From positions 1-23,885 of IMG/VR virus record IMGVR_UViG_2778261635_000004: 23,885 bases of DNA. One strand, written 5' to 3'. Source of the DNA: a virus. Lineage: Duplodnaviria > Heunggongvirae > Uroviricota > Caudoviricetes. The notes below the pieces were generated by a model, which made no database searches, was not told the origin of the DNA, and was given only the letters and a program-made list of their open reading frames with translations. The position numbers and the translations under genes are program-made. Positions 3,603 to 22,773 of this stretch are shown here, one piece after another (positions within the stretch are counted from its first letter, which is position 1; each line of letters starts with the position of its first letter).

Positions 3603-4832
3603 TTATTGTGTTAGATCATTAAGTATTGGTGCAATCTCATCGTAAGAGTCGATCCAAATAACATTCACGCCAAATGAATTAGCATCGATTTCTTCAAAAG
3701 TATGCACTGTCTGTAAAAGAGAGGTCGCGATTGCATCCTCATTAATATTCAGTTTATTATCAAATCCATTTCTTGAGTCACTAACAATTCTTTGAATATT
3801 AGCAATCACATCTTCTTTCGAATGTCTACACTTAATTAAATAATGAGGTTTAGAATCATTCCCTCTAAGTTTTTTGGCTGTATCCATCAACCTTCTGAGG
3901 TTTGGATCTGTAAAGGAATGACCAACAAACAGGCAATTTCCATCTTTGAATTTATTCAACTGAACCATATTGCTCCAATGGTATAAATCCATGTATTGCC
4001 TATGATAGCTTTCATCAGAAAGGACTAGCGTGTCATCGAGTTCAACTTTCCCCTGCAATGGGAGATAGCCATGCACATGGTAGATCGGCAGTTCATCATT
4101 TTTTGCATGCTGCCCCGTCTTTGAAATCACCTTATACTTTATACCAACATCAGCTCTAGTTAATGTCTGTTCCAAAATATCATCATAGTTATATGTAATA
4201 ACGGAATCTAGACCTGGTGACTTGCCTGCCGATATGCACAATTTCTTGATTGCTTTCAATGTACTGCTTTCTTCCTCCTGATAATATTCATACAAAACAT
4301 GCTGAATTTCTTTTTCCAAGGGAGTATTAATACCATCAAAGTGTAGTTTTAGATATCTGGCTGCTATGAGTGCGTTCGGACCGAAAACCTCATTAAACAA
4401 AACCGATACCATTTTCTGATTTTCATTTTTATCATCCAAAGCTCTTGCCAATAGCCGCTTTAATAATTCACTCCATGTTGGTATGCTGTAATCTAAAGAA
4501 ATGCCAGCACCTAAAACAAGAACTAAATTCTCCTCTTTAAAAGAGGTCTTCAGGTTCCTCAATACCGTAGTTCTTGTCGCTTGAGAATGGCCCTTTACTT
4601 TTATTTCTAAATTTTTGATAGCATTTGAAGTTAGTTTTTCTATACCACCTGAACGTAGAAAATCCGCGATAATTGCAAAGGTTGATGTTTGAACTGACGT
4701 TGCTGTCGTAGCAACCTCTGCCGCTATGGCCATGGCATCTGCCATAGAGTTCGCTTTTGGTGGTTCAGACTCACTTTTATCTAAATTTGATTTATCAGCT
4801 TTGGGGGACTCATCTTGCTTTTTCATACTCAC
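3603..4832 (-). CDS. SIR2-like (sirtuin-fold, SIR2_2/ThsA-type) stand-alone protein; cargo gene at the S/V junction
   Basis: 409 aa track ORF uses a GTG start; first ATG is at 4826. After a charged N-terminus: LVLVLGAGISLDYSIPTWSELLKRLL (GAGxS Rossmann start), VITYNYDDILE, IYHVHGY, LFVGHSFTDPNLRRL, recalled as the SIR2-like NADase pattern. Markedly AT-rich versus flanking late genes. Confidence 0.6.
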   Translation of the reverse strand: MSMKKQDESPKADKSNLDKSESEPPKANSMADAMAIAAEVATTATSVQTSTFAIIADFLRSGGIEKLTSNAIKNLEIKVKGHSQATRTTVLRNLKTSFKEENLVLVLGAGISLDYSIPTWSELLKRLLARALDDKNENQKMVSVLFNEVFGPNALIAARYLKLHFDGINTPLEKEIQHVLYEYYQEEESSTLKAIKKLCISAGKSPGLDSVITYNYDDILEQTLTRADVGIKYKVISKTGQHAKNDELPIYHVHGYLPLQGKVELDDTLVLSDESYHRQYMDLYHWSNMVQLNKFKDGNCLFVGHSFTDPNLRRLMDTAKKLRGNDSKPHYLIKCRHSKEDVIANIQRIVSDSRNGFDNKLNINEDAIATSLLQTVHTFEEIDANSFGVNVIWIDSYDEIAPILNDLTQ

Positions 4833-10491: not shown

Positions 10492-12258
10492 ATGAACACC
10501 ACACTGACACCCGCAGATCTCGATCCCCGTCGGCAGGCCATGCTGCTGTACTTTCAGGGATACCGCGTAGCCCGCATTGCTGAAATGCTGGGCGAGAAAG
10601 TTGCAACCGTTCACAGCTGGAAAAAACGCGACAAATGGGGTGACTATGGGCCGCTGGATCAGATGCAGCTCACCACCGCCGCACGCTACTGCCAGCTCAT
10701 CATGAAGGAGCACAAAGAAGGGAAAGATTTCAAAGAGATTGACCTGCTGGCGCGCCAGTCGGAGCGCCACGCGCGGATCGGCAAGTTTAACAATGGCGGC
10801 AACGAAGCCGACTTAAACCCTAACGTCGCCAACCGCAACAAAGGCCCGCGCCGTCAGCCGGAAAAGAATGTCTTCACCGATGAACAGACCGAAAAGCTGG
10901 AGGAAATCTTCCGCAACGGCATGTTTGAATATCAGCGCCACTGGTGGCAGGCAGGCGTAAAACACCGCATTCGCAACCTGCTTAAATCACGCCAGATCGG
11001 GGCAACATACTTTTTTGCCCGCGAAGCGCTGATTGACGCCATCACCACGGGGCGCAACCAGATTTTTCTCTCAGCCAGTAAGGCGCAGGCACACGTTTTT
11101 AAGCAGTACATCATCGACTTTGCAAAAGAGGTGGATGTTGAGCTGAAAGGCGACCCGATGACCCTCAGCAACGGCGCGTGCCTGTACTTCCTCGGCACCA
11201 ACGCCCGCACGGCGCAGAGCTACCACGGCAACCTGTACCTTGATGAATATTTCTGGATACCGAAATTCCAGGAGTTGCGCAAGGTTGCCTCCGGTATGGC
11301 CATTCACAAGAAATGGCGACAAACCTACTTCTCCACGCCGTCCAGCCTGACCCACAGCGCCTATCCGTTCTGGTCTGGCGCGCTGTTCAACCGGGGCCGC
11401 GCCAAAGCAGACAAGGTGGACATTGACCTGACCCACAGCAACCTTGCGCGCGGCGTGCTCTGCCCGGACGGACAATATCGCCAGATCGTCACCGTAGAGG
11501 ATGCGGTGCGCGGTGGCTGTAATCTGTTCGACCTTGACCAGCTGCGCATGGAGTACAGCCCGGACGAATACCAGAACCTGCTGATGTGCGAATTTATTGA
11601 CGATCTGGCGTCAGTATTCCCGCTCAGCGAGCTGCAGGCGTGCATGGTGGACAGCTGGGAAGTGTGGGCAGATTTTCAGGCGCTGGCGCTGCGCCCGTTT
11701 GGCTGGCGCGAAGTCTGGATCGGATACGACCCGGCGAAAGGCACGCAGAACGGTGACAGCGCCGGGTGCGTGGTGGTGGCACCACCAACCGTACCGGGCG
11801 GCAAGTTCCGCATTCTTGAGCGGCACCAGTGGCGCGGGATGGACTTCCGCGCCCAGGCTGACGCTATCAAAAAGCTGACGCAGCAATACAACGTGACCTA
11901 TATCGGCATCGACTCGACCGGCGTCGGTCACGGTGTCTACGAGAACGTGAAAGCGTTCTTTCCTGCCGTGCGGGAGTTTGTCTACAACCCCAACGTCAAA
12001 AACGCCCTGGTGCTCAAGGCATACGACATTATCAGCCACCGGCGTCTGGAGTTCGACGCCGGGCACACCGACATTGCGCAGTCCTTTATGGCTATCCGCC
12101 GGGCCACTACCGCCAGCGGCAACCGCCCAACCTACGAAGCCAACCGCAGCGAAGAAGCCAGCCACGCAGATTTGGCCTGGGCAACGATGCACGCACTGTT
12201 TAACGAACCGCTGCAGGGTGAATCCGCCAATACCAGTAATATCGTGGAGATTTTTTAA
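10492..12258 (+). CDS. P: Terminase large (ATPase) subunit P
   Basis: 588 aa; size and position match P2 gpP; transcribed divergently from O and followed by the portal. Confidence 0.9.
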   Translation: MNTTLTPADLDPRRQAMLLYFQGYRVARIAEMLGEKVATVHSWKKRDKWGDYGPLDQMQLTTAARYCQLIMKEHKEGKDFKEIDLLARQSERHARIGKFNNGGNEADLNPNVANRNKGPRRQPEKNVFTDEQTEKLEEIFRNGMFEYQRHWWQAGVKHRIRNLLKSRQIGATYFFAREALIDAITTGRNQIFLSASKAQAHVFKQYIIDFAKEVDVELKGDPMTLSNGACLYFLGTNARTAQSYHGNLYLDEYFWIPKFQELRKVASGMAIHKKWRQTYFSTPSSLTHSAYPFWSGALFNRGRAKADKVDIDLTHSNLARGVLCPDGQYRQIVTVEDAVRGGCNLFDLDQLRMEYSPDEYQNLLMCEFIDDLASVFPLSELQACMVDSWEVWADFQALALRPFGWREVWIGYDPAKGTQNGDSAGCVVVAPPTVPGGKFRILERHQWRGMDFRAQADAIKKLTQQYNVTYIGIDSTGVGHGVYENVKAFFPAVREFVYNPNVKNALVLKAYDIISHRRLEFDAGHTDIAQSFMAIRRATTASGNRPTYEANRSEEASHADLAWATMHALFNEPLQGESANTSNIVEIF

Positions 12259-13304
12259 TGAGTGAACAAAACGAGGCCGCAAGTCTGGGGACTATCGATC
12301 CACAGCACCTGCCTGACAAAGCAGCCACAGCCGAAGCATTCAGCTTCGGCGATCCGATCCCGGTGTTAGACCGTCGCGAACTTCTTGACTATGTAGAGTG
12401 CGTACAGATGGATCGCTGGTATGAGCCGCCTGTCAGCTTTGACGGACTGGCGCGGACTTACCGTGCCGCGGTGCACCACAGCTCACCGATTGCCGTAAAG
12501 CGTGACATTCTCAGCAGCACTTACATCCCGCACCGCCTGCTCAGCCAGCAGGCTTTTGCCCGTTTCGTCCAGGACTATCTGGTATTCGGTAACGCCTATC
12601 TGGAAAAACGCACCAACCGGCTCGGCGGCGTTCTCTCACTTGAGCCAGCACTAGCGAAATATACACGGCGTGGAGTGGACCTCGAAACCTACTGGTTTGT
12701 GCAGTATGGTCTGACCACACAGCCATATGAATTTACGCGTGGCAACGTCTTCCATCTGATGGAACCGGATATTAACCAGGAGATTTATGGGTTGCCCGGC
12801 TATCTCTCCGCTATCCCATCAACCCTTCTCAACGAGTCCGCAACGCTATTTCGCCGGAAGTATTACATCAACGGCAGCCATGCTGGCTTCATCATGTACA
12901 TGACTGACGCAGCGCAGAATCAGGAGGATGTGAACAATATCCGCCAGGCAATGAAAAGCGCCAAAGGACCAGGTAATTTTCGCAACCTGTTTATGTACTC
13001 CCCCAACGGGAAAAAAGATGGTATCCAGATCATTCCATTGTCCGAGGTGGCAGCAAAAGATGAATTTCTGAACATCAAGAACGTGAGCCGCGATGACATG
13101 ATGGCAGCGCACCGCGTTCCGCCGCAAATGATGGGAATTATTCCCAACAATACAGGCGGTTTTGGTGATGTAGAAAAAGCCAGTCGCGTATTTGTTCGCA
13201 ATGAGTTAATCCCCTTGCAAAAACGTTTGCAGGAATTAAATGACTGGCTTGGGGAAGCAATAATTACATTTTCACCTTATGAATTGGGTGCAGATGTAAA
13301 ATAA
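12258..13304 (+). CDS. Q: Portal protein Q
   Basis: 348 aa; start overlaps P stop; size and position match P2 gpQ. Confidence 0.9.
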   Translation: MSEQNEAASLGTIDPQHLPDKAATAEAFSFGDPIPVLDRRELLDYVECVQMDRWYEPPVSFDGLARTYRAAVHHSSPIAVKRDILSSTYIPHRLLSQQAFARFVQDYLVFGNAYLEKRTNRLGGVLSLEPALAKYTRRGVDLETYWFVQYGLTTQPYEFTRGNVFHLMEPDINQEIYGLPGYLSAIPSTLLNESATLFRRKYYINGSHAGFIMYMTDAAQNQEDVNNIRQAMKSAKGPGNFRNLFMYSPNGKKDGIQIIPLSEVAAKDEFLNIKNVSRDDMMAAHRVPPQMMGIIPNNTGGFGDVEKASRVFVRNELIPLQKRLQELNDWLGEAIITFSPYELGADVK

Positions 13305-13310
13305 TTGGTT

Positions 13311-14084
13311 CTAGCCTCTATTTTTTCTTCTATCCTCACGCCTTTCTTTTGCCTGAGCAAGGCGTTGAGGTTCAGTATATAAACGTTCCAACAATATATA
13401 AGTGAACTCTTCAAGGTCCTCCGCAGCCGCGTAATCTAAAGCTCCTTCATGCGCGCCATCATTGCCATCATCTTTCACACATTCAGCCAAGTCTCTTAAA
13501 GTCTCTGGCAACCGCTGATTATCAAACAACCAATTCATTCTTAACCCTAAGCTTCGCCGTATTTTTTGATTTGGTTCAGTATCTCCCTTAGGTAATAAGT
13601 CCTTAGTTGCATAATCCAAACATAACCTAAACATAGTTCCTGCTGCGTTATAGCAACCAATAGCTAAACACTTAGAACCTTCTACAAAAGCTTCGTGTAT
13701 ATGCTGAGGCAAAAATTCTGGCGGTTCTCCTGCATCTAAGTCTGCTGGACTAATTGGGCGTTTGACTTTTGCAATATCAGTTAGCTTAAATAAGGCCATG
13801 CCCCAGTTAATGCTGCTAAGATCACGTCCCCGATCTAAGCTATCACAAATATATATCGTTGTTTTCTTACACTCCCTGCATACACAATATACCTCATATT
13901 CGGGTAAATTATCGCCGGAAAATGTTTCATACGTACCGCAGCAGTTTGCCCCTAGAACATCAAATGCTATTTTTTGCGCACCACACCTTGGGCAGTTTTC
14001 CACTAACATAGCCATGCAACAGATATCCTTGAAATGGTGATTATTTGTATGTTCTAAATACCATAATTTCTTACTGACAACCAT
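13311..14084 (-). CDS. Cys-rich zinc-ribbon protein with DUF4145-like C-terminal domain; cargo gene between portal and cos
   Basis: 257 aa; CxxC pairs (CPRCG, CRECKK) plus other Cys in the N-terminal 90 aa; C-terminus LRDLAECVKDDGNDGAHEGALDYAAAEDLEEF resembles the DUF4145 pattern as I recall it. AT-rich; only 6 bp from the Q stop (convergent); start codon about 10 nt from the cos-like sequence. Confidence 0.5.
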   Translation of the reverse strand: MVVSKKLWYLEHTNNHHFKDICCMAMLVENCPRCGAQKIAFDVLGANCCGTYETFSGDNLPEYEVYCVCRECKKTTIYICDSLDRGRDLSSINWGMALFKLTDIAKVKRPISPADLDAGEPPEFLPQHIHEAFVEGSKCLAIGCYNAAGTMFRLCLDYATKDLLPKGDTEPNQKIRRSLGLRMNWLFDNQRLPETLRDLAECVKDDGNDGAHEGALDYAAAEDLEEFTYILLERLYTEPQRLAQAKERREDRRKNRG

Positions 14085-14093
14085 GAGCGCGCG

Positions 14094-14112
14094 CTCGTAT
14101 CCCCGCCACGCC
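14094..14112. other. cos-like cohesive-end site
   Basis: Reverse complement reads GGCGTGGCGGGGATACGAG, close to the 19-nt cohesive ends I recall for P2 (GGCGAGGCGGGGAAAGCAC) and 186 (GGCGTGGCGGGGAAAGCAT); next to the portal end of the map as expected. Confidence 0.45.
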
Positions 14113-14121
14113 TGCCCGCTT

Positions 14122-14238
14122 TATGCAGTGGTTTTCATGCACATGCATGACATGAGCAAAAGCCCGCCAGTTCTGGCGGATCTGAGCAAAGACGATCCTC
14201 AATCGATCATGCGATTTCATGCAGCATAGTCATGCACT
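14122..14238. repeat. Cluster of (T)CATGCA hexamer repeats plus a 16-bp palindrome (ccgccag tt ctggcgg, about 14164..14179) flanked by GAGCAAA direct repeats
   Basis: CATGCA or near-copies at about 14122, 14136, 14142, 14208, 14218, 14232; palindrome and flanking repeats read directly from the sequence. Confidence 0.5.
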
Positions 14239-14491: not shown

Positions 14492-14827
14492 ATGAACAAT
14501 ATTCCCCCTATACCACAGTTAGGAATTTATGTCTCAAAAATCGATCCCACCCTACGTATCACTGTAACCGATGTTGATATTGTTGATGGTGAGGATGATT
14601 CTCCTGATGATGAATTGTTTTATTTAGTCCACTGGATCGAGGGGGAAGATGAAAGTGATATGACAGCAATGGGATTTGAGCTAGACCCATTAGAGTGGCA
14701 GGCTTTCGTTGAATCTGAGCAATTAGTGTTTGAGCGTGATCCGTACATGGATTCAATCCCCGAAAATTCAAACTTGGCAAAGATTCGGGATTTTCTCATG
14801 AAGACTAAACAGAATGATCATTCGTAA
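14492..14827 (+). CDS. Small, highly acidic hypothetical protein (Asp/Glu-rich), cargo gene
   Basis: 111 aa with strong RBS (aaaggag 7 nt before ATG); D/E runs (DGEDDSPDDE, EGEDESD); AT-rich. Confidence 0.65.
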   Translation: MNNIPPIPQLGIYVSKIDPTLRITVTDVDIVDGEDDSPDDELFYLVHWIEGEDESDMTAMGFELDPLEWQAFVESEQLVFERDPYMDSIPENSNLAKIRDFLMKTKQNDHS

Positions 14828-15019: not shown

Positions 15020-15253
15020 TTAATGCAGCCAGCTGTCGTCCTCCCACACCTTCTGCATAATTTTCATCACTTGTTTTCTTTCTTCATCCAGTTGCAGTCC
15101 GGTTAGTTCCACACCGTTAGAGCTACCTTTGCGAATGCGAATTACCGTTTTGGGATACAGGGGGCGCAGATTGCGGTAAAGCTCGGATTCAAGTGCGTCC
15201 AAGGTAGACTGGCTAATCTTCTGCTCTTTATCGATCATTATTTCAATGCGCAT
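15020..15253 (-). CDS. DinI-family protein (SOS-induced RecA modulator homologue)
   Basis: Track ORF 15020..15325; the likely start is the internal ATG at 15253 (GAGGTG upstream), giving 77 aa. MRIEIMIDKEQ...ALESELYRNL...QKVWEDDSW follows the recalled E. coli DinI pattern (MRIEVTI..., ...TWE...W). Confidence 0.75.
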   Translation of the reverse strand: MRIEIMIDKEQKISQSTLDALESELYRNLRPLYPKTVIRIRKGSSNGVELTGLQLDEERKQVMKIMQKVWEDDSWLH

Positions 15254-15263
15254 AAAAGTCACC

Positions 15264-15452
15264 TCAGCTGATGACATCCATTGAGCGGTTGTATTCGTGG
15301 CTTCTGATTTTTGCCATGAGTTCATCAGTCAATTCAGAAACCCACTGCAGAGCCAGCCCCTTCTCTTCATCACTACACTCACTAGCCGCTACAAGCTTAA
15401 GAAAAAAATCAATGCGCTGGAGCTTCAAAGACTCCAAAAAATAGTCCTGCAT
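15264..15452 (-). CDS. Small hypothetical protein, first gene of the LexA-controlled operon (candidate Tum-like antirepressor part)
   Basis: 62 aa from the ATG at 15452 with AGGAGG 5 nt upstream; the longer track ORF (to 15554) would run through the LexA box and promoter. Confidence 0.5.
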   Translation of the reverse strand: MQDYFLESLKLQRIDFFLKLVAASECSDEEKGLALQWVSELTDELMAKIRSHEYNRSMDVIS

Positions 15453-15605: not shown

Positions 15606-18020
15606 TTAATACAGGTTCCGCCACTTATCATCTTCCTTCAGACGCTGGTTCCGATAGAAGATACGCAGGCCTGCTCCTGACGGAATACTGCCGCCGCGAA
15701 GGAGCAAATCGACTTCTTTCTCGCTGCCATCAAATCCCCTGGACTTCAGTTCATAGACGAGCTGCTGTCGCTGATGGTCTGTAATTCGCTGTTTGTAGTC
15801 TTTACGCCGTTTCGGTTTCACCTGGCGTAACCTTGCAGCCAGTTCCCGGCGCTCTTTTTTGCTCATACTGTGCAGGTAATCGTGCAACTCCTTGTCATTC
15901 ATACGGGTAATATCCGTTCTGGAGTCCCCATCAGCTGATTTGTCTTTCCCTTGTTGGTTCAAATTTTCAGCAAGGGGACAGTTATTGCCACGAGTCCAAG
16001 GGGCGCAAGCGCCCTGGTCGGCTACCGCCTCCTGAACGTCAACGGCCTTACGAACCATTTTCCACTTCACTGCATGAGTGCAGATCTTGCCCTCTGCAAT
16101 GGGTGACCAGATGCCATAAATACGAATGCCGTGATCGCCATAGGCGGTCGGCTCTTCGTTGATTTCATAAGCGGTTCTGATAAGGTGATATTTACGGGGA
16201 ACCAGTACGCCGCCCTGCTTCATGATGTAGGTGGCAAAACAACCAGCATCAGCAGCAGCCAGGATGGCATCAAGGCGCGGGTCATCCAGTATCGGCGCAC
16301 CTGCTTTTTTGTCACCCTGTTGCCTTGCCGCCTGACCAGCCAGCAAGCGAAGTTCACGGTAAGCCTGACGTCCCGGAATACCAAAGAAGCGGAACTGCTG
16401 AACACGATGCAGAGACGCCCAGGCATTAACGTATTCGGCGTTATCACGCAGGGATTTACCCGTTTCCTTGCTGATCTCGCCAGCCAGACCACGCCCGTCA
16501 ATGTTCTTACTGATGTATTTCGCGATGTAGCTTGTCGGTGTTCCTTTGCGCCGGTTAATCAGCTCAGACTTAAAGCGTGGCCCCGTGTTGTTGCCCAGCT
16601 CCTCGCGGTCTACACGGATGGCAAACTTACGCAGTAATGCAGTGATGGCGCGGCGGTCTTTTTTACGCATGAAGCACATGAGATGCCAGTGCACAGTACC
16701 GTCATGGTGCGGCTCAGCCACCCGCACGCCATACCAGCGCAACCCGGTTTTGTGCATTGCCTTACGAAATGCAGCAAACATGCCGACCATATAATCGCTG
16801 CTTTGTCTTACCGTCGCATTTGTCCAGGTCGGGTTGGGTCTGCCGTTGTTGAGCGTGGAATGGAAACGTGACGGACAGGTGATAGTGTAGAAAACGGCGC
16901 AGTCACCGCGCATTTCCGCGATAAGCTCCAGACCTTTAACACAGGCCATCATCTCATTGCGGCGATGCGCAGGGTTGCTGCTGCTGGCGTTTACCACATC
17001 CTCCATGTCCAGCGTGTCGCCGTCTTCGTTCACCAGTTCATGAGAACGGAAAAACTCCAGCGACTTACGGCGCTGCTCACGTTTATGCATCACGGCTTCA
17101 TAGCTGACATAGGGAGATGCTTTTTTGCTGACCAGGCAGACAGCACGCAACTGCTCTTCCCGCCATTCGCAACGCATCTTCCATAATTTCCCATACCACC
17201 AGTCGGCGCACAACATACGCGCCAGCGAACCCGGAATGAGTTCATAGGGCACGGGTTTACGGCGGTTTCTTTTCCGACGGAGTTGCTCAAACGCAGGTGG
17301 GATGACATCCAGACGCAGGGTTTCCGCCGCCACCTTTTCCCATGTCTTGCGGATTTCTTCTGGCTTAACGTCATCGGTGGCATACAAATCGCCACAAGCT
17401 GCATCAAGGCACATGCTCATATGCGCAGCTACCAGGGTGGACAGGCGTTTCACCTGATCCTGACTCATTTCAGGCAGGATCAGCAGGCCCTCCAGCCCTT
17501 GATGGCTTGCCATAAAACGGAAAGAAGCAGACAGCTGACTGTCACGTACACAATCCAGTCGCTCCAGACATGGCTTAATCGTCTCACGCAAATAGCGGGA
17601 ATAAGCCTTTGGCCTGCCCAGGCTGCTGAAGTATTCGATACGTTGCATCAGCGGCTTGCTAATATGGGTGGGCTGGGCGCTGACGTCCGCCAGAATGACC
17701 ATGTCCGGGTTAAAACGCTGCTGTTCATGCGCTAGCTTTGCCCGGCTAATGAGCTTATCCTGCTCCATTTCGCGCTGGACAGGATCACGAGATTCATTAA
17801 AGAAATAACGCTCCCAGACCTGCTCACTCAGTGCATCGCGGCGCAGCTGTTCCTGCTCATTATCGGCAGCGTACAGAGTGATCAGGTTTAAAAGTGCAGA
17901 CTCCGGAGCAACTTCCGCCGGGTCCAGATAAGGGTTAATGGCCTTTTTCGGGCCGTTCCATGAAAATGCTGCAGCGGCCTCGTTAAAGCCGCTAGAGTTG
18001 CTCATATCGTCATGACTCAT
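15606..18020 (-). CDS. A: Replication initiation protein A (rolling-circle endonuclease)
   Basis: 804 aa; HUH-like motif [10 protein letters not shown] and active-site tyrosine motif YIAKYISK; GAGGTG RBS; start overlaps the Dam stop. Confidence 0.9.
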
Positions 18021-18874
18021 ACACGCACCTCGTACACAGCAGAACTATCCACGCCACGCGAAGGATCAAATCCCACCCAGCAGCGCGCCCCGGAAACAGC
18101 AATGATTTCTGTTGCAGATTTACTCTCGCCAGCCGACACGCCGATGCTGCGTTTTGCCTTGATGTAGTGGTGAGTGAAATTTCGATACAGCGAACGGATC
18201 AGGGATGTGTCACTGTTAGAAACAATGACTGGATGACCTTCTGATGATCGATATTCAAGAACAGATGCCAGGTGATACTGGTCATCTTCAGTGAAGCCGT
18301 CAGTGTGATAGCCGGAAAACGTACCGTCATAAGGCGGATCGCAATACACCACATCCCCCACCTGCAGCATCGCCAGCGTTTCATCAAAGCTGGCGCAGAT
18401 AAACGTTGCTCGCTGGGCTTTCTCTGCAAATGCGCGAATTTCTTTTTCAGGGAAATACGGATTTTTATAATTACCGTATGGAATGTTGAAATGCCCGCTC
18501 TTGTTATAACGACATAACCCACGGTAACCATGACGATTGAGATACAGGAAATATACCGCTTTCATGAAATCAGTAATTTCAGTGGAGTAATTAAACTCCT
18601 GCCTTATGTTGTAATAAGCCACCTCCCTGTTTGCTTCCTCAAATAAAGCTCTGGCACGAGATATAAACGCCTCGCAATCAGCAGCAACCTTTTTATAGAG
18701 GTTGATTAAATCAGGATTAATATCCGCAACAAGATAGCTGGGGTAATCCGTCTCCATCATCACAGCACAGGAACCCGCGAAAGGTTCAACCAGTCGCGGG
18801 CCAGCAGGAAGATGTTTTTTCAGTTCGGACATAATGGCAGTTTTATTACCCGCCCATTTCAGGATGGTGCTCAT
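18017..18874 (-). CDS. DNA adenine (N6) methyltransferase, Dam-like orphan MTase
   Basis: Likely start is the ATG at 18874 ([16 protein letters not shown] upstream), giving 285 aa; motifs [15 protein letters not shown] and DPPY; no adjacent restriction endonuclease gene. Confidence 0.85.
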
Positions 18875-19098
18875 ACAGCACCTCCGTTGTAATGTTTGCC
18901 TTTCAGCTCTGCGATTTCCTGACAGGTAATGCAAAGCTGCACACCTGGAATGGCGCGGCGGCGTGCTGGCGGAATTGGCGCTTCACACTCAATGCAAAGC
19001 ACGCGGGACACGCCCGGCGTTTTGGCACGGGCAGCACGGATATGGCGCTGGCGTTCTTCTTCAACGCGCTGCTGTACAAGATCCATTGCATCAGCCAT
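18871..19098 (-). CDS. DksA/TraR-family C4 zinc-finger protein (P2 orf82-like)
   Basis: 75 aa with CIECEAPIP...CITC four-Cys arrangement; start/stop codons overlap both neighbours. Confidence 0.7.
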   Translation of the reverse strand: MADAMDLVQQRVEEERQRHIRAARAKTPGVSRVLCIECEAPIPPARRRAIPGVQLCITCQEIAELKGKHYNGGAV

Positions 19099-20689: not shown

Positions 20690-20834
20690 AAGGCAACATT
20701 CCTTATAGATATGGCTTGTGGCGAGCCGTAGTTTGTCGTGATTAGTAGTGAAGGCTCCAAAAGAACACTTCTGGTTCAACTTTAAGATCGCTTTTGGAAT
20801 CTGTCAACGAATTTTGGATTTCCTTGGAGGACTC
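20690..20834. promoter_or_regulatory. Lysis-lysogeny switch region (divergent genes; operators/promoters not resolved)
   Basis: 145-bp intergenic region between the divergent Apl/Cox-like and CI genes; inverted repeat CCAAAAG (about 20757) / CTTTTGG (about 20791) and direct repeats TTTTGGA(A/T)T (about 20793 and 20813). Confidence 0.4.
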
Positions 20835-21410
20835 ATGGATTTCAGCAGCGGTGGTAAGAAAGTCATTGAACGTCTAGTTGAGGCGTACGGGTTCTCTACG
20901 AGACAAGCTCTTTGCGATCATTTGGGAGTATCCAAGAGCACCATGGCTACACGTTACATGCGAGACATCTTCCCTGCAGATTGGGTTTTGCAATGTGCTA
21001 TTGAAACTGGTTATCCACTAGAATGGCTGGCATTCGGTATAGGGGACAAAAAACCCTCAAATATAAATGCACAAATTTTGGTACCAAAGAAAAAATTAAT
21101 TTCAGGAACGTTAATTGAAGATGGAGCATATATTTTTGATAAAACATTCTTACCTGAAAAAATATGTAATCCGTTCATCATTCAAGATCTGGATAACGAA
21201 TACATATGTAGCTTTGAATATAATGACATAAGCGATGGATTGTGGCTAATAGGCATAGACGAAAAAATTTCGGTCCGAACCCTGACCCGCTTACCTAATA
21301 ACAGGTTATATGTTGAAGGAGGAAATCGTGGCTTTGAGTGTTCCAGAGATGAAATACAGGTTATTGGAATTGTGTGGTGCTGCATACTAAGAAGAGCAGA
21401 AAAATTTTAG
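20835..21410 (+). CDS. cI: Immunity repressor, phage 186 CI-like
   Basis: Internal ATG at 20835 with GGAGG RBS gives 191 aa (186 CI is about 192 aa as I recall); N-terminal HTH-like segment (GFSTRQALCDHLGVSKSTMATRYMR); divergent from Apl/Cox. Confidence 0.7.
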   Translation: MDFSSGGKKVIERLVEAYGFSTRQALCDHLGVSKSTMATRYMRDIFPADWVLQCAIETGYPLEWLAFGIGDKKPSNINAQILVPKKKLISGTLIEDGAYIFDKTFLPEKICNPFIIQDLDNEYICSFEYNDISDGLWLIGIDEKISVRTLTRLPNNRLYVEGGNRGFECSRDEIQVIGIVWCCILRRAEKF

Positions 21411-21441: not shown

Positions 21442-22773
21442 ATGCCTATTGAATATACGTTTGATTATCGTGATGAGTTCCTTCGTAAGCCTATTGCTGA
21501 AAAATTAATAGCTCTACTGAACTCTGATATTAACTTATCTCCGCTGGTTATAGATGGCGGATGGGGCACGGGAAAAACAGAGTTTTGCAAAAAAGTTGCA
21601 AATCTAATTGAAAACAATAATCAAAAACATAAAGTAGTTTACATTGATGCTTTCGCTGAAGATCATAATGATGCCCCCATTTTGACGTTAATGGCAGGTG
21701 TTGCTGCACTTTTGCCCGAAGACAAACGAAAAGAGTTGATAAGCAAAACACTACCAGCAATACGTTTTGGTTTGAAAACCATTTTCAAAGCTGGCACTGG
21801 ATGGGTGTTAAAACAAAATGCAGATGACATTGTTGATGGCTTCGAAGATGCTATCAAAGAAGCCACTTCGAGTGCAATCGACAGTACAATTGAAACATTA
21901 TTAGACGATCATATAGAAGCACAGAAAAACATCGAGACATTGAGAAATACAATTTCGCAACTTACAGAGAAATTTAAAATAACGATTATTATAGACGAAC
22001 TGGACAGATGTAAACCTACATTCGCTCTTTCAATCATAGAAAATATTAAACACATTTTTGAAATAAAAAACTTGAATTTTGTTTTGGTTGCAAAGACTCA
22101 ACAACTCAAAGCATCAATAAGCCATCTGTATGGTTTATCCATAAATGCAGAACAGTATTTAGACAAATTCATAAAATTTACATTTGTATTGCCCGATACA
22201 TTTAAACCAGACAACTATACACCTGCATACGCATCTGTCGCTTTATGGGAAATATTAAAAAATGATTCTCAAAGACTGCAAGAAGTAAACGAAGAATGCG
22301 GGCATATTATAAAAACGATAATACAAAGAGCTAAGTTGTCTTTACGTGAAGTAGAAACATTATCGCGCCATTTTGAAATATATCAGGTGCTATCTCAATC
22401 TGGAATTGGTCCAGAAAAAATATTTGGTTATTCATTATACCGAACGTTAGGAGTGATGCTATATTCTCTAAATCGCCCTTTGGCATTAAGCTATCTAGAT
22501 AATTCTGTGGATGCAGAAAGTACTATCAAAACATTAGGCTTTGAATATTTAAGTTATGATGAGGATATTTATAGTGTAGATAATACTGAATATGCTATTT
22601 ATGGGATCGTACTAGACTATATTGATGCAACATCTCCATTCTTTATAAAGGATGATGAAACCAGAAAAAAATGGACTGAACATGCTACCTATAGTTTCTT
22701 TCAAAAGGGCTTAAATACTGTTCCTCCCCGAAAACTTGTTTCGTCCGCCATTGAAGTTTTAATGCTCAACTAA
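21442..22773 (+). CDS. KAP-family P-loop NTPase, stand-alone cargo gene in the lysogenic operon
   Basis: 443 aa; Walker A GGWGTGKT with the KAP-typical Trp; Walker B IIIDELDRC; hydrophobic insert (APILTLMAGVAALLP) between them; AT-rich; 31 nt after the CI stop on the same strand with GGAG RBS; integrase follows. Confidence 0.8.
   Translation: MPIEYTFDYRDEFLRKPIAEKLIALLNSDINLSPLVIDGGWGTGKTEFCKKVANLIENNNQKHKVVYIDAFAEDHNDAPILTLMAGVAALLPEDKRKELISKTLPAIRFGLKTIFKAGTGWVLKQNADDIVDGFEDAIKEATSSAIDSTIETLLDDHIEAQKNIETLRNTISQLTEKFKITIIIDELDRCKPTFALSIIENIKHIFEIKNLNFVLVAKTQQLKASISHLYGLSINAEQYLDKFIKFTFVLPDTFKPDNYTPAYASVALWEILKNDSQRLQEVNEECGHIIKTIIQRAKLSLREVETLSRHFEIYQVLSQSGIGPEKIFGYSLYRTLGVMLYSLNRPLALSYLDNSVDAESTIKTLGFEYLSYDEDIYSVDNTEYAIYGIVLDYIDATSPFFIKDDETRKKWTEHATYSFFQKGLNTVPPRKLVSSAIEVLMLN

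Follow-up and report, generated by a model that had tools for sequence, protein, structure and literature searches.

The question raised by this locus is what a low-GC gene, read from the cohesive-end site (cos) towards the portal gene Q, is doing in a P2-like (Peduoviridae) prophage. The prophage is represented by IMG/VR record IMGVR_UViG_2778261635_000004, whose 23,885-nt stretch was analysed as a whole and is called the window in what follows. The gene, here referred to as RAZR-like, is interpreted as an anti-phage module of the RAZR/PD-T7-4 type, consisting of one gene and acting by abortive infection, carried as lysogenic-conversion cargo on the portal side of the cos-proximal gpA-gpQ hotspot; the probability assigned to this interpretation is roughly 0.72. 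It is based on the domain architecture of the product, on the homology of its HEPN domain to that of RAZR, on the conservation of its His, Asn, Glu and Arg130 residues, on purifying selection, on the genomic niche, and on the transcription, in the lysogen, of the orthologue carried by phage Cartapus.

The C-terminal part of the 234-aa product (Table 1) matches the Pfam family DUF4145 (PF13643) with a score of 28.2 bits, above the gathering cut-off of 23.1 (E 2e-6), and the ...GN..AH motif of this family is read in it as KDDGNDGAH. Conservation was counted over 48 diverse relatives, with 21 closer relatives kept as a separate set. In the N-terminal part, the CxxC...CxxC cysteines C8/C11/C46/C49 are present in 46-48 of the 48 relatives, and an AlphaFold2 (AF2) model of residues 1-60 contains beta-hairpins at 3-6, 16-30, 36-46 and 52-59, with a predicted local distance difference test (pLDDT) score of 91-97. 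From sequence and model, an N-terminal Cys4 zinc ribbon is present and predicted to bind zinc; its homology to the zinc-finger domain (ZFD) of RAZR is a separate matter, discussed below, and its match to the RPA12 zinc ribbon profile is weak and not significant (E 1.3). Both the zinc ribbon and the resemblance to DUF4145 had been proposed in the initial annotation of this DNA, and the nearly invariant cysteines and the Pfam score bear them out. For the DUF4145/HEPN family, zinc-ribbon fusions and occurrence in double-stranded DNA viruses have both been listed (Anantharaman et al. 2013, PMC3710099).

Among the same 48 relatives, H189 is found in every sequence and N185 in 46; E112, R130 and the four cysteines are likewise invariant or nearly so, and P99 is invariant. 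Position 181 is occupied by R in 30 and by K in 14 of them, and by K in all 21 closer relatives. Conservation is distributed unevenly, the mean pairwise identity being 45% for residues 1-60, 27% for residues 61-97 and 69-74% for the HEPN domain. The protein matches PHROG 1305, labelled 'DNA binding protein', over its full length (E 7e-45); no NCBIfam model matches it, and Foldseek comparison with BFVD returned just two unnamed viral proteins.

PD-T7-4, whose discovery is reported in Vassallo et al. 2022 (PMC9519451), has been renamed RAZR, for ring-activated zinc-finger RNase, from work on the protein of E. coli UMB1727 (PDB 9Y9C, 9Y6U; Zhang et al., Nature 2026, PMC13017515). According to the latter study, RAZR couples a Cys4 zinc ribbon at its N-terminus to a DUF4145/HEPN domain at its C-terminus, R146 and H154 being the catalytic residues of the latter, and an alanine mutant of R146 loses defence. 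RAZR alone is inert and not toxic, and acts via abortive infection: 24 protomers assemble round a ring of ~170 Å, which may be the portal (T7 gp8, T3, SECphi18) or the Erf-like protein SECphi27 gp77, and the activated enzyme cleaves single-stranded RNA non-specifically. The phage specificity is set by the zinc-finger domain (PMC13017515).

The relationship of the window protein to RAZR was evaluated by several comparisons. The PADLOC model of PD-T7-4 is matched by the window protein (E 5e-6) and by 40 of the 48 family members (best E 8.9e-13). The restriction or abortive-infection context, given for DUF4145 in the earlier reading, is supported by this match, PD-T7-4 being RAZR (PMC13017515). 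A profile built on the 48 sequences matches the RAZR chain 9y9c_OA with an E-value of 1.1e-4, placing H189 on H154 and K181 on R146; searches of the PDB sequences with a single sequence or a narrow profile gave no match, and 9y9c was reached only by this broader profile. When a RAZR family, recovered from the 9y9c alignment (20 members aligned), is compared with the window family by HHalign, the probability is 97% (E 9.4e-11) over 113 columns. In BLASTP, the window protein and the representative of the RAZR-Ec cluster share 23% identity over 128 aa, corresponding to the linker and the HEPN domain; here the linker ISPADLDAGEPPEFLP pairs with RAZR IIPAAGNVELPNPDMP (the RAZR linker is formed by residues 66-79) and E112 pairs with E88. 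On these profile and pairwise comparisons, the window protein is a distant homologue of RAZR/PD-T7-4. Its presumed sensor region is far more variable than the HEPN domain, a pattern also seen in RAZR.

By analogy with RAZR, the window protein would have anti-phage activity, would be activated by a ring, and would act as an RNase with Lys in place of the catalytic Arg. By homology, it would be produced in the lysogen as an inactive oligomer. Upon infection by a foreign phage, the variable face of the zinc ribbon would bind a multimeric phage protein, the RAZR-type trigger being a ring of ~170 Å, e.g. a portal dodecamer or an Erf-like recombinase ring. The ring would template a higher-order oligomer, in which HEPN dimers are positioned for non-specific cleavage of RNA; translation would collapse before progeny is formed, and the infection would abort.

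The limits of the gene had to be redefined. The longest open reading frame (ORF) at the Q-cos locus, 13311..14084 on the minus strand, encodes 257 aa and was taken as the gene in the initial annotation, which also described it as AT-rich. The ORF exists, and the GC content of the gene is indeed only 41.6%, compared to 50.8%, 57.7% and 53.4% in genes Q, P and A, respectively, but the real gene encodes 234 aa. The convergence with Q, whose TAA stop codon ends at 13304, and the distance of 6 bp between the two stops are as originally described. The DNA of the gene is 100% identical to that encoding WP_063080201.1 ('DUF4145 domain-containing protein') in E. coli E41 and GPEC1222. Because the DNA across cos differs in both of these, the window comes from a third, related prophage.

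Table 1. Coordinates of the RAZR-like gene, of the segments of its product and of the surrounding features in the window.
Feature	Position	Strand	Remarks
Terminase gene P	10492-12258	+	
Portal gene Q	12258..13304	+	Pfam Phage_portal
RAZR-like gene (234 aa + stop)	13311..14015	-	stop codon 13311-13313; start ATG 14015-14013
Residues 98-234: end of linker, DUF4145/HEPN RNase domain, long C-terminal helix with basic tail	13314..13724	-	
Catalytic motif K181-D-D-G-N-D-G-A-H189	13449..13475	-	counterpart of RAZR R146...H154
Residues 61-97: variable segment and start of conserved linker (ISPADL...)	13725..13835	-	~27 residues beyond RAZR
Residues 1-60: Cys4 zinc ribbon	13836..14015	-	C8, C11, C46, C49; presumed sensor domain
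Cassette-borne 5' untranslated spacer, 78 nt	14016..14093	-	AT-rich; between cohesive end and ATG 14015
Candidate promoter in spacer	-35 TTGTCA 14080-14075; -10 TAGAAC 14056-14051	-	18-nt gap
cos cohesive-end 19-mer GGCGTGGCGGGGATACGAG	14094..14112		read on minus strand (14112..14094); aligns with P2 cosL/cosR
Conserved cos flank, gpA side	14113..14238	.	87-91% identical in many P2-like phages without the gene (Klebsiella, Escherichia, Salmonella)
Putative terminator-like hairpin, then CTTTTGCTCA	14163..14180	-	consensus scan; ~50 nt upstream of cos on the gene strand; inside the conserved flank
DinI-like gene	15020-15325	-	
Replication gene A	15606-18020	-	

The gene starts at ATG 14015, a position on which the starts of the homologues, the annotation of identical genes, the reading frame of Cartapus, the pattern of substitutions and the Shine-Dalgarno sequence all agree. 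Nearly all of the ~120 homologues listed are 228-245 aa long, with M24 of the 257-aa ORF as their invariant first residue, and the identical gene is annotated as 705 nt in both E41 and GPEC1222 by the Prokaryotic Genome Annotation Pipeline (PGAP). The upstream in-frame ATG (14084-14082) sits within GCGCGCTCATGGTTG, directly beside cos, and in Cartapus its counterpart meets a stop after 9 codons. Comparison of the window with a related locus of its own clade (L008), counted on the spacer alignment, reveals 13 non-synonymous changes and 1 synonymous change in the 23-codon 'extension'; in the gene proper the non-synonymous divergence (dN) between the same two sequences is 0.08 and the synonymous one (dS) is saturated. 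Overall, dN ranges from 0.08 to 0.40, again with saturated dS, and the gene is under purifying selection. A Shine-Dalgarno sequence, AAGGA or GGAGG, is located 8-10 nt 5' of the M24 ATG in all clades (in the window AAGGA, 14030-14026). The 257-aa ORF was also considered as a genuine N-terminally extended form, and rejected: homologues start at M24, the Cartapus frame stops, and nearly all changes in the extension are non-synonymous. The start had been placed about 10 nt from cos; the real one lies 78 nt from the cohesive end.

The genomic niche was surveyed in 80 IMG/VR loci encoding relatives of the protein, as well as in 5426 complete E. coli genomes. Of these loci, 49 belong to P2-like phages and include all but two of the 51 with at least 48% identity. 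In 48 of the 49 a convergent P2-type portal gene lies downstream, and in most a cos motif is found upstream, usually about 97-130 nt before the ATG. Since the linked portals span 64-95% identity, the association of the gene with the cos-portal junction, as judged from these sequences, is either old or has been formed more than once. Relatives at or below 46% identity are found at assorted sites of unrelated prophages, where their neighbours (e.g. tape-measure, gpD-like, methylase or terminase genes) are never the same throughout. Within the complete E. coli genomes, the family is present in 46 and the cos region in 1266.

A second sample was formed by the 80 closest relatives of the portal, irrespective of cargo, 75 of which have a recognisable cos. 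The Q-cos gap measures 152-169 nt, as in P2, in 25 of them, and contains 260-2998 nt of cargo in the other 50, the RAZR-like gene being present in 7. Cargo ORFs in this gap (L086-L165) are nearly all oriented from cos to Q. Many of them are known defence genes. Their products match, in PADLOC, PDC-S06, AbiU, HEC-06, bSEFIR, a type II methyltransferase, Hp2 and PDC-S33, and for several others (e.g. of 399, 360 and 454 aa) the PADLOC match is marginal or missing at E 1e-5. A filled Q-cos gap is thus common in P2-like phages: the observation, made at the outset, that a gene occupies this gap stands, whereas the occupancy is not unusual. P2 itself, as the initial annotation had stated, has a short non-coding stretch here, with merely 167 nt, containing the tQ terminator, from cosL to the Q stop. 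The gpA-gpQ interval is a known defence hotspot adjacent to cos (Rousset et al. 2022, PMC9122126; PMC9519451; Nucleic Acids Research 2026, PMC13586616), which these papers, in their passages on the hotspot, treat as one interval, the two sides of cos not being separated. The RAZR-like gene fits such cargo, being located between gpA and gpQ, beside cos, and variable among syntenic phages.

Four different neighbours across cos are found beside the same cassette, in the window, E41, GPEC1222 and LF82, and because of these differences the module is regarded as a single gene. The neighbour in the window is a very acidic 111-aa ORF (14492-14827, plus strand) on the gpA side, read away from cos, which matches PHROG 17127, of unknown function, over its full length and has no Pfam, PADLOC or NCBIfam match. 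It is not a partner of the RAZR-like gene, since it is missing from E41 and GPEC1222, where the cassette is identical. On the opposite side, the 3' end of Q (13155-13304) has a GC content of 0.39 in the last ~150 nt, compared to 0.53 in the rest, and the final ~15 residues of its product vary together with the type of cargo: F-[T/S]-P-Y is found in the window and in all 7 carriers of the RAZR-like gene, F-E-P-Y in most others. Because the end of Q shares the low GC content and co-varies with the cargo, the recombination junction of the cassette seems, from sequence composition, to lie inside Q, with the portal C-terminus co-inherited with the cargo.

The cos assignment, made originally from a cos-like sequence beside the gene, was confirmed. 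When read by eye, the alignment of GGCGTGGCGGGGATACGAG with P2 cosL/cosR has 13 of 19 identical bases; phage Cartapus has the 19-mer unchanged within bases 1-59, its annotated 'putative cos site', and the sequence is present, as such or as a 1-base variant, in the 75 related loci examined. By this similarity, the site is a true cos of the P2 type. The flank towards gpA is 99% identical to copies in E. coli B and C, and is probably the packaging-recognition part of cos, outside the cargo. Conservation around cos, evaluated on window positions 14086-14238 and on the 75 loci, is so lopsided, with ~125-150 nt on the gpA side against ~7 nt (CGCGCGC) on the Q side, that it suggests an almost complete confinement of the packaging signals to the gpA side.

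A consensus scan detected no intrinsic terminator in the segment 13305-13310 between Q and the RAZR-like gene, and P2 tQ has no counterpart there; the nearest weak hairpin followed by a T-run on the plus strand is at 14116-14131, just past cos. As the convergent genes are not separated by a terminator, late P-Q transcripts would be expected to read antisense through the RAZR-like gene.

Expression data are available for an orthologue. CARTA_1 (LF82_788; WP_000245245.1 in LF82) of Cartapus, the P2-like prophage of strain LF82 (OV696611), is 69% identical to the window protein, occupies the same slot and is annotated as DUF4145; the Cartapus genome record opens at the annotated cos site. Compared with that of the window, the Cartapus spacer has ~30 nt more, and the gene immediately beyond cos, CARTA_47, is a cargo gene of the same orientation. 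In published RNA-seq data from LF82 (PMC9928086, S1 table), expressed as log2(fpkm+5), where fpkm stands for fragments per kilobase per million, CARTA_1 scores 4.65 and 4.71 in stationary lysogeny broth (LB) cultures, 7.0-7.6 in conditions B1/B6 and 9.2-9.6 in MB1/MB6, MB6 being LF82 in THP1 macrophages at 6 h. In every condition, the Cartapus genes for portal, terminase and capsid, as well as gpA, stay at a floor of 2.3-3.1. Because CARTA_1 is expressed while the late genes and gpA are at floor level, transcription of this one orthologue, 69% identical, takes place in the lysogen and does not depend on the lytic programme. It was not scored as a moron in that study under a 5-fold rule, its value in LB, as read from the table, being 25.6 against a local ~6-7 (PMC9928086).

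On the other side of cos in LF82 (NC_011993, 2759532-2760958; locus L167), CARTA_44, the DinI-like CARTA_45 and CARTA_46 rise strongly in macrophages, with gpA at floor level, and CARTA_47, beside cos, is expressed in all conditions. Because CARTA_44-46 rise and gpA does not, this transcription unit begins downstream of gpA, separate from the early operon.

The source of transcription of the RAZR-like gene itself was sought in the spacer between cos and the ATG. This spacer measures 78 nt in the window, 81-113 nt in other clades with the same kind of spacer and 163-305 nt in five loci. Thirty-two distinct spacers were aligned and scanned for -35/-10 and extended -10 elements. A conserved motif, TTG(T/A)NN-N14-TG(G/A)TAT(C/T)(A/T)A, emerged, whose spacing does not fit canonical sigma-70 in some clades; among the 75 related phages, the form CTCATGGTTG...TGGTAT[C/T][A/T]A is found solely beside the RAZR-like family. 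Read from the alignment, the position of the candidate promoter is occupied by TTGTCA-18-TACAAT in a near-identical locus (L006), and L008 has TAGAGT as its -10. A site for integration host factor (IHF) at TATCAA was also considered, and failed across loci when the spacer alignment was inspected. Most likely, the 78-nt spacer contains a weak promoter belonging to the gene itself, for which the elements given in Table 1 are a candidate.

An alternative, put forward in the initial annotation, is that the gene, lacking its own promoter, depends on RNA polymerase crossing cos, so that expression would come solely from circular or integrated DNA. That a strict consensus scan finds no sigma-70 promoter on the minus strand of 14016-14093, that the best -10 candidate of the window, TAGAAC, lacks the conserved final T, and that the expression of CARTA_47 parallels that of CARTA_1 over five conditions in LF82, making read-through across cos possible, all argue in this direction and against a promoter in the spacer. 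The original argument, however, is unsupported, because it was built on the wrong start codon; from the true start there are 78 nt of cassette-specific spacer, with a Shine-Dalgarno sequence and a conserved motif, and the near-identical L006 carries TTGTCA-18-TACAAT at the same place. The neighbours across cos are of four kinds: the nearest gene in the window is the acidic ORF, which points the opposite way, and E41 has no cargo across cos at all, with a cassette still 100% identical. On the strand of the gene, a putative terminator-like hairpin lies ahead of cos. In phage phiCTX, where the ctx gene holds a corresponding position, -35/-10 elements are annotated at 281-308, between cos and the gene. 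As to the parallel expression, CARTA_1 slightly exceeds CARTA_47 in MB1 (9.2 vs 9.0), and unrelated prophage cargo genes rise likewise across conditions. Transcription dependent on crossing cos is consequently improbable, and would have little biological weight, since a lysogenic-conversion gene acts from the integrated prophage, in which cos is intact.

As to function, several points weigh against a RAZR-type module. The HHalign alignment with RAZR ends at the linker, leaving the zinc-ribbon domains unaligned, and within them BLASTP pairs just NCPRCG with NCPHCG (E 0.11), the ZFD being hypervariable within RAZR too. In the window protein ~27 extra residues are present between the second CxxC and the linker, and the catalytic R146 of the Rx7H motif is replaced by K181, a conservative change. 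Foldseek comparison with the PDB gave no match at E <= 0.001, and RAZR entries are absent among the 50 matches listed. The carrier phage builds a portal ring of its own, which would be a problem for a portal sensor unless portals are discriminated. Finally, the function of the window protein and of its clade is argued from homology. Because the zinc-ribbon domain is unaligned with that of RAZR and ~27 residues longer, the trigger may differ from those of RAZR.

The same features leave some room for a zinc-ribbon/HEPN defence protein that works unlike RAZR, with an enlarged sensor recognising a nucleic acid or a monomeric phage protein and no 24-mer being formed. The PHROG label 'DNA binding protein' would suit it, as would the DefensePredictor preprint (10.1101/2025.01.08.631726), in which DS-38 is argued to work by a mechanism of its own. 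DS-38, whose defence activity in E. coli has been validated by experiment, has the same pair of domains, HEPN and zinc finger, and a zinc finger different from that of PD-T7-4. It may belong to the same family as the window protein; no ECOR strain name occurs among the 46 complete E. coli genomes carrying the family. Such a mechanism is nonetheless considered unlikely: the linker needed by RAZR to couple sensor and RNase is conserved, domain order and pattern of variability are those of RAZR, and the zinc finger is the most variable part also among bona fide RAZRs, which share triggers. Comparably doubtful is a related proposal, in which the family would be a separate, old zinc-ribbon/HEPN lineage of the cos-portal junction, diverged to ~50% identity, whose enlarged and fast-evolving sensor would tell foreign rings (portals, recombinases) from the gpQ ring of the resident phage, or would sense a different trigger. 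On this proposal, the antisense transcription and the co-inheritance of the Q C-terminus could both help to avoid self-activation during the lytic cycle of the prophage itself.

Far less probable than either is a function for the phage rather than in defence, be it as a packaging or cos accessory factor or as an addiction toxin stabilising the prophage. The position beside cos, the portal gene and the terminase gene, the same PHROG label, and the occurrence of HEPN domains in toxins of toxin-antitoxin systems (PMC3710099) might suggest it. The gene is, on the other hand, absent from P2 and from 68 of the 75 close relatives with a recognisable cos, is found in a small minority of complete E. 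coli genomes relative to the cos region, and has distant homologues at unrelated prophage positions. In the lysogen, transcripts of the Cartapus orthologue are seen when the packaging genes are silent, RAZR alone is not toxic, and the locus contains no partner gene and no room for one. The packaging and toxin-antitoxin roles were both rejected on the basis of distribution and of the missing partner gene. A defence module of the RAZR/PD-T7-4 type remains the preferred interpretation.

Three further genes of the prophage are of note. A SIR2-like gene (3603-4832, minus strand, GC ~0.37) is inserted between the baseplate gene V and a virion morphogenesis gene, at the position of P2 orf30. It matches Pfam SIR2_2 (E 3e-20) and, near E 1e-20, LmuA/ThsA-like PADLOC models, is annotated as 'SIR2 family protein' in E. 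coli E41, and is, by these matches, probably a second defence cargo. A KAP-family P-loop NTPase gene (21442-22773, plus strand), matching the PADLOC candidate PDC-S20 (E 5e-174), lies in a low-GC stretch, flanked by the genes for the CI repressor (20748-21410) and the integrase (22854 onwards); as predicted by this match, it is a third defence-type cargo of the prophage. Gene A is directly preceded by a gene (18017-18934, minus strand) for a Dam-type (D12 class) N6-adenine methyltransferase, which is classified in PADLOC as an orphan methyltransferase and is also present in E41 and in LF82/Cartapus.

RAZR set the precedent of a bacterial immune RNase switched on by wrapping a phage portal ring. 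The present family is a distant relative of it that is phage-borne and, in dozens of P2-like prophages of Enterobacterales, is located beside the portal gene of the carrier; the twist is that a relative of a portal-activated RNase is encoded next to a portal gene. If portal sensing holds true, the carrier phage must have solved a self/non-self problem, and the family would offer a natural test bed for sensor specificity, in which zinc-ribbon variants can be set against resident and foreign portals. The analysis adds a defence-type gene that routine annotation had left as 'DUF4145 domain-containing protein', and points out the portal side of cos as a distinct site for cargo. For P2 hotspots in general the picture is unchanged, the hotspot having already been described three times and RAZR characterised in depth; what is new is a diverged RAZR relative in a known slot, not a new kind of system.

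In comparison with known systems, the window protein resembles RAZR in being a single protein of about 220-235 aa, where a conserved proline-rich linker joins an N-terminal Cys4 ribbon to a C-terminal DUF4145/HEPN domain, and in which E112/R130/N185/H189 correspond to RAZR E88/R105/N150/H154. The two are also alike in their carriage on mobile elements and in a sensor region more variable than the RNase, the identities within RAZR being 47%, 75% and 86% for the corresponding parts. They differ in that their 23% identity is limited to linker and HEPN domain, and in location: RAZR-Ec overlaps the 3' end of an integrase gene (PMC9519451, also confirmed here), whereas the window family lies between cos and the portal gene. 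The P2 genes old and tin are similarly low-GC, swappable anti-phage cargo, placed between A and Q beside cos and acting from the prophage; unlike the RAZR-like gene, which is on the Q side and read from cos to Q, they are on the gpA side and read away from cos. The classical precedent for cargo on the Q side of cos is ctx of phiCTX (NC_003278), where cosL (1-21) is followed by the cargo gene (362-1222), read inwards, and by a convergent Q (1417-2469). There, however, the product is a pore-forming toxin, and terminators are annotated between ctx and Q, in the place of the 6 bp that separate the two stops in the window.

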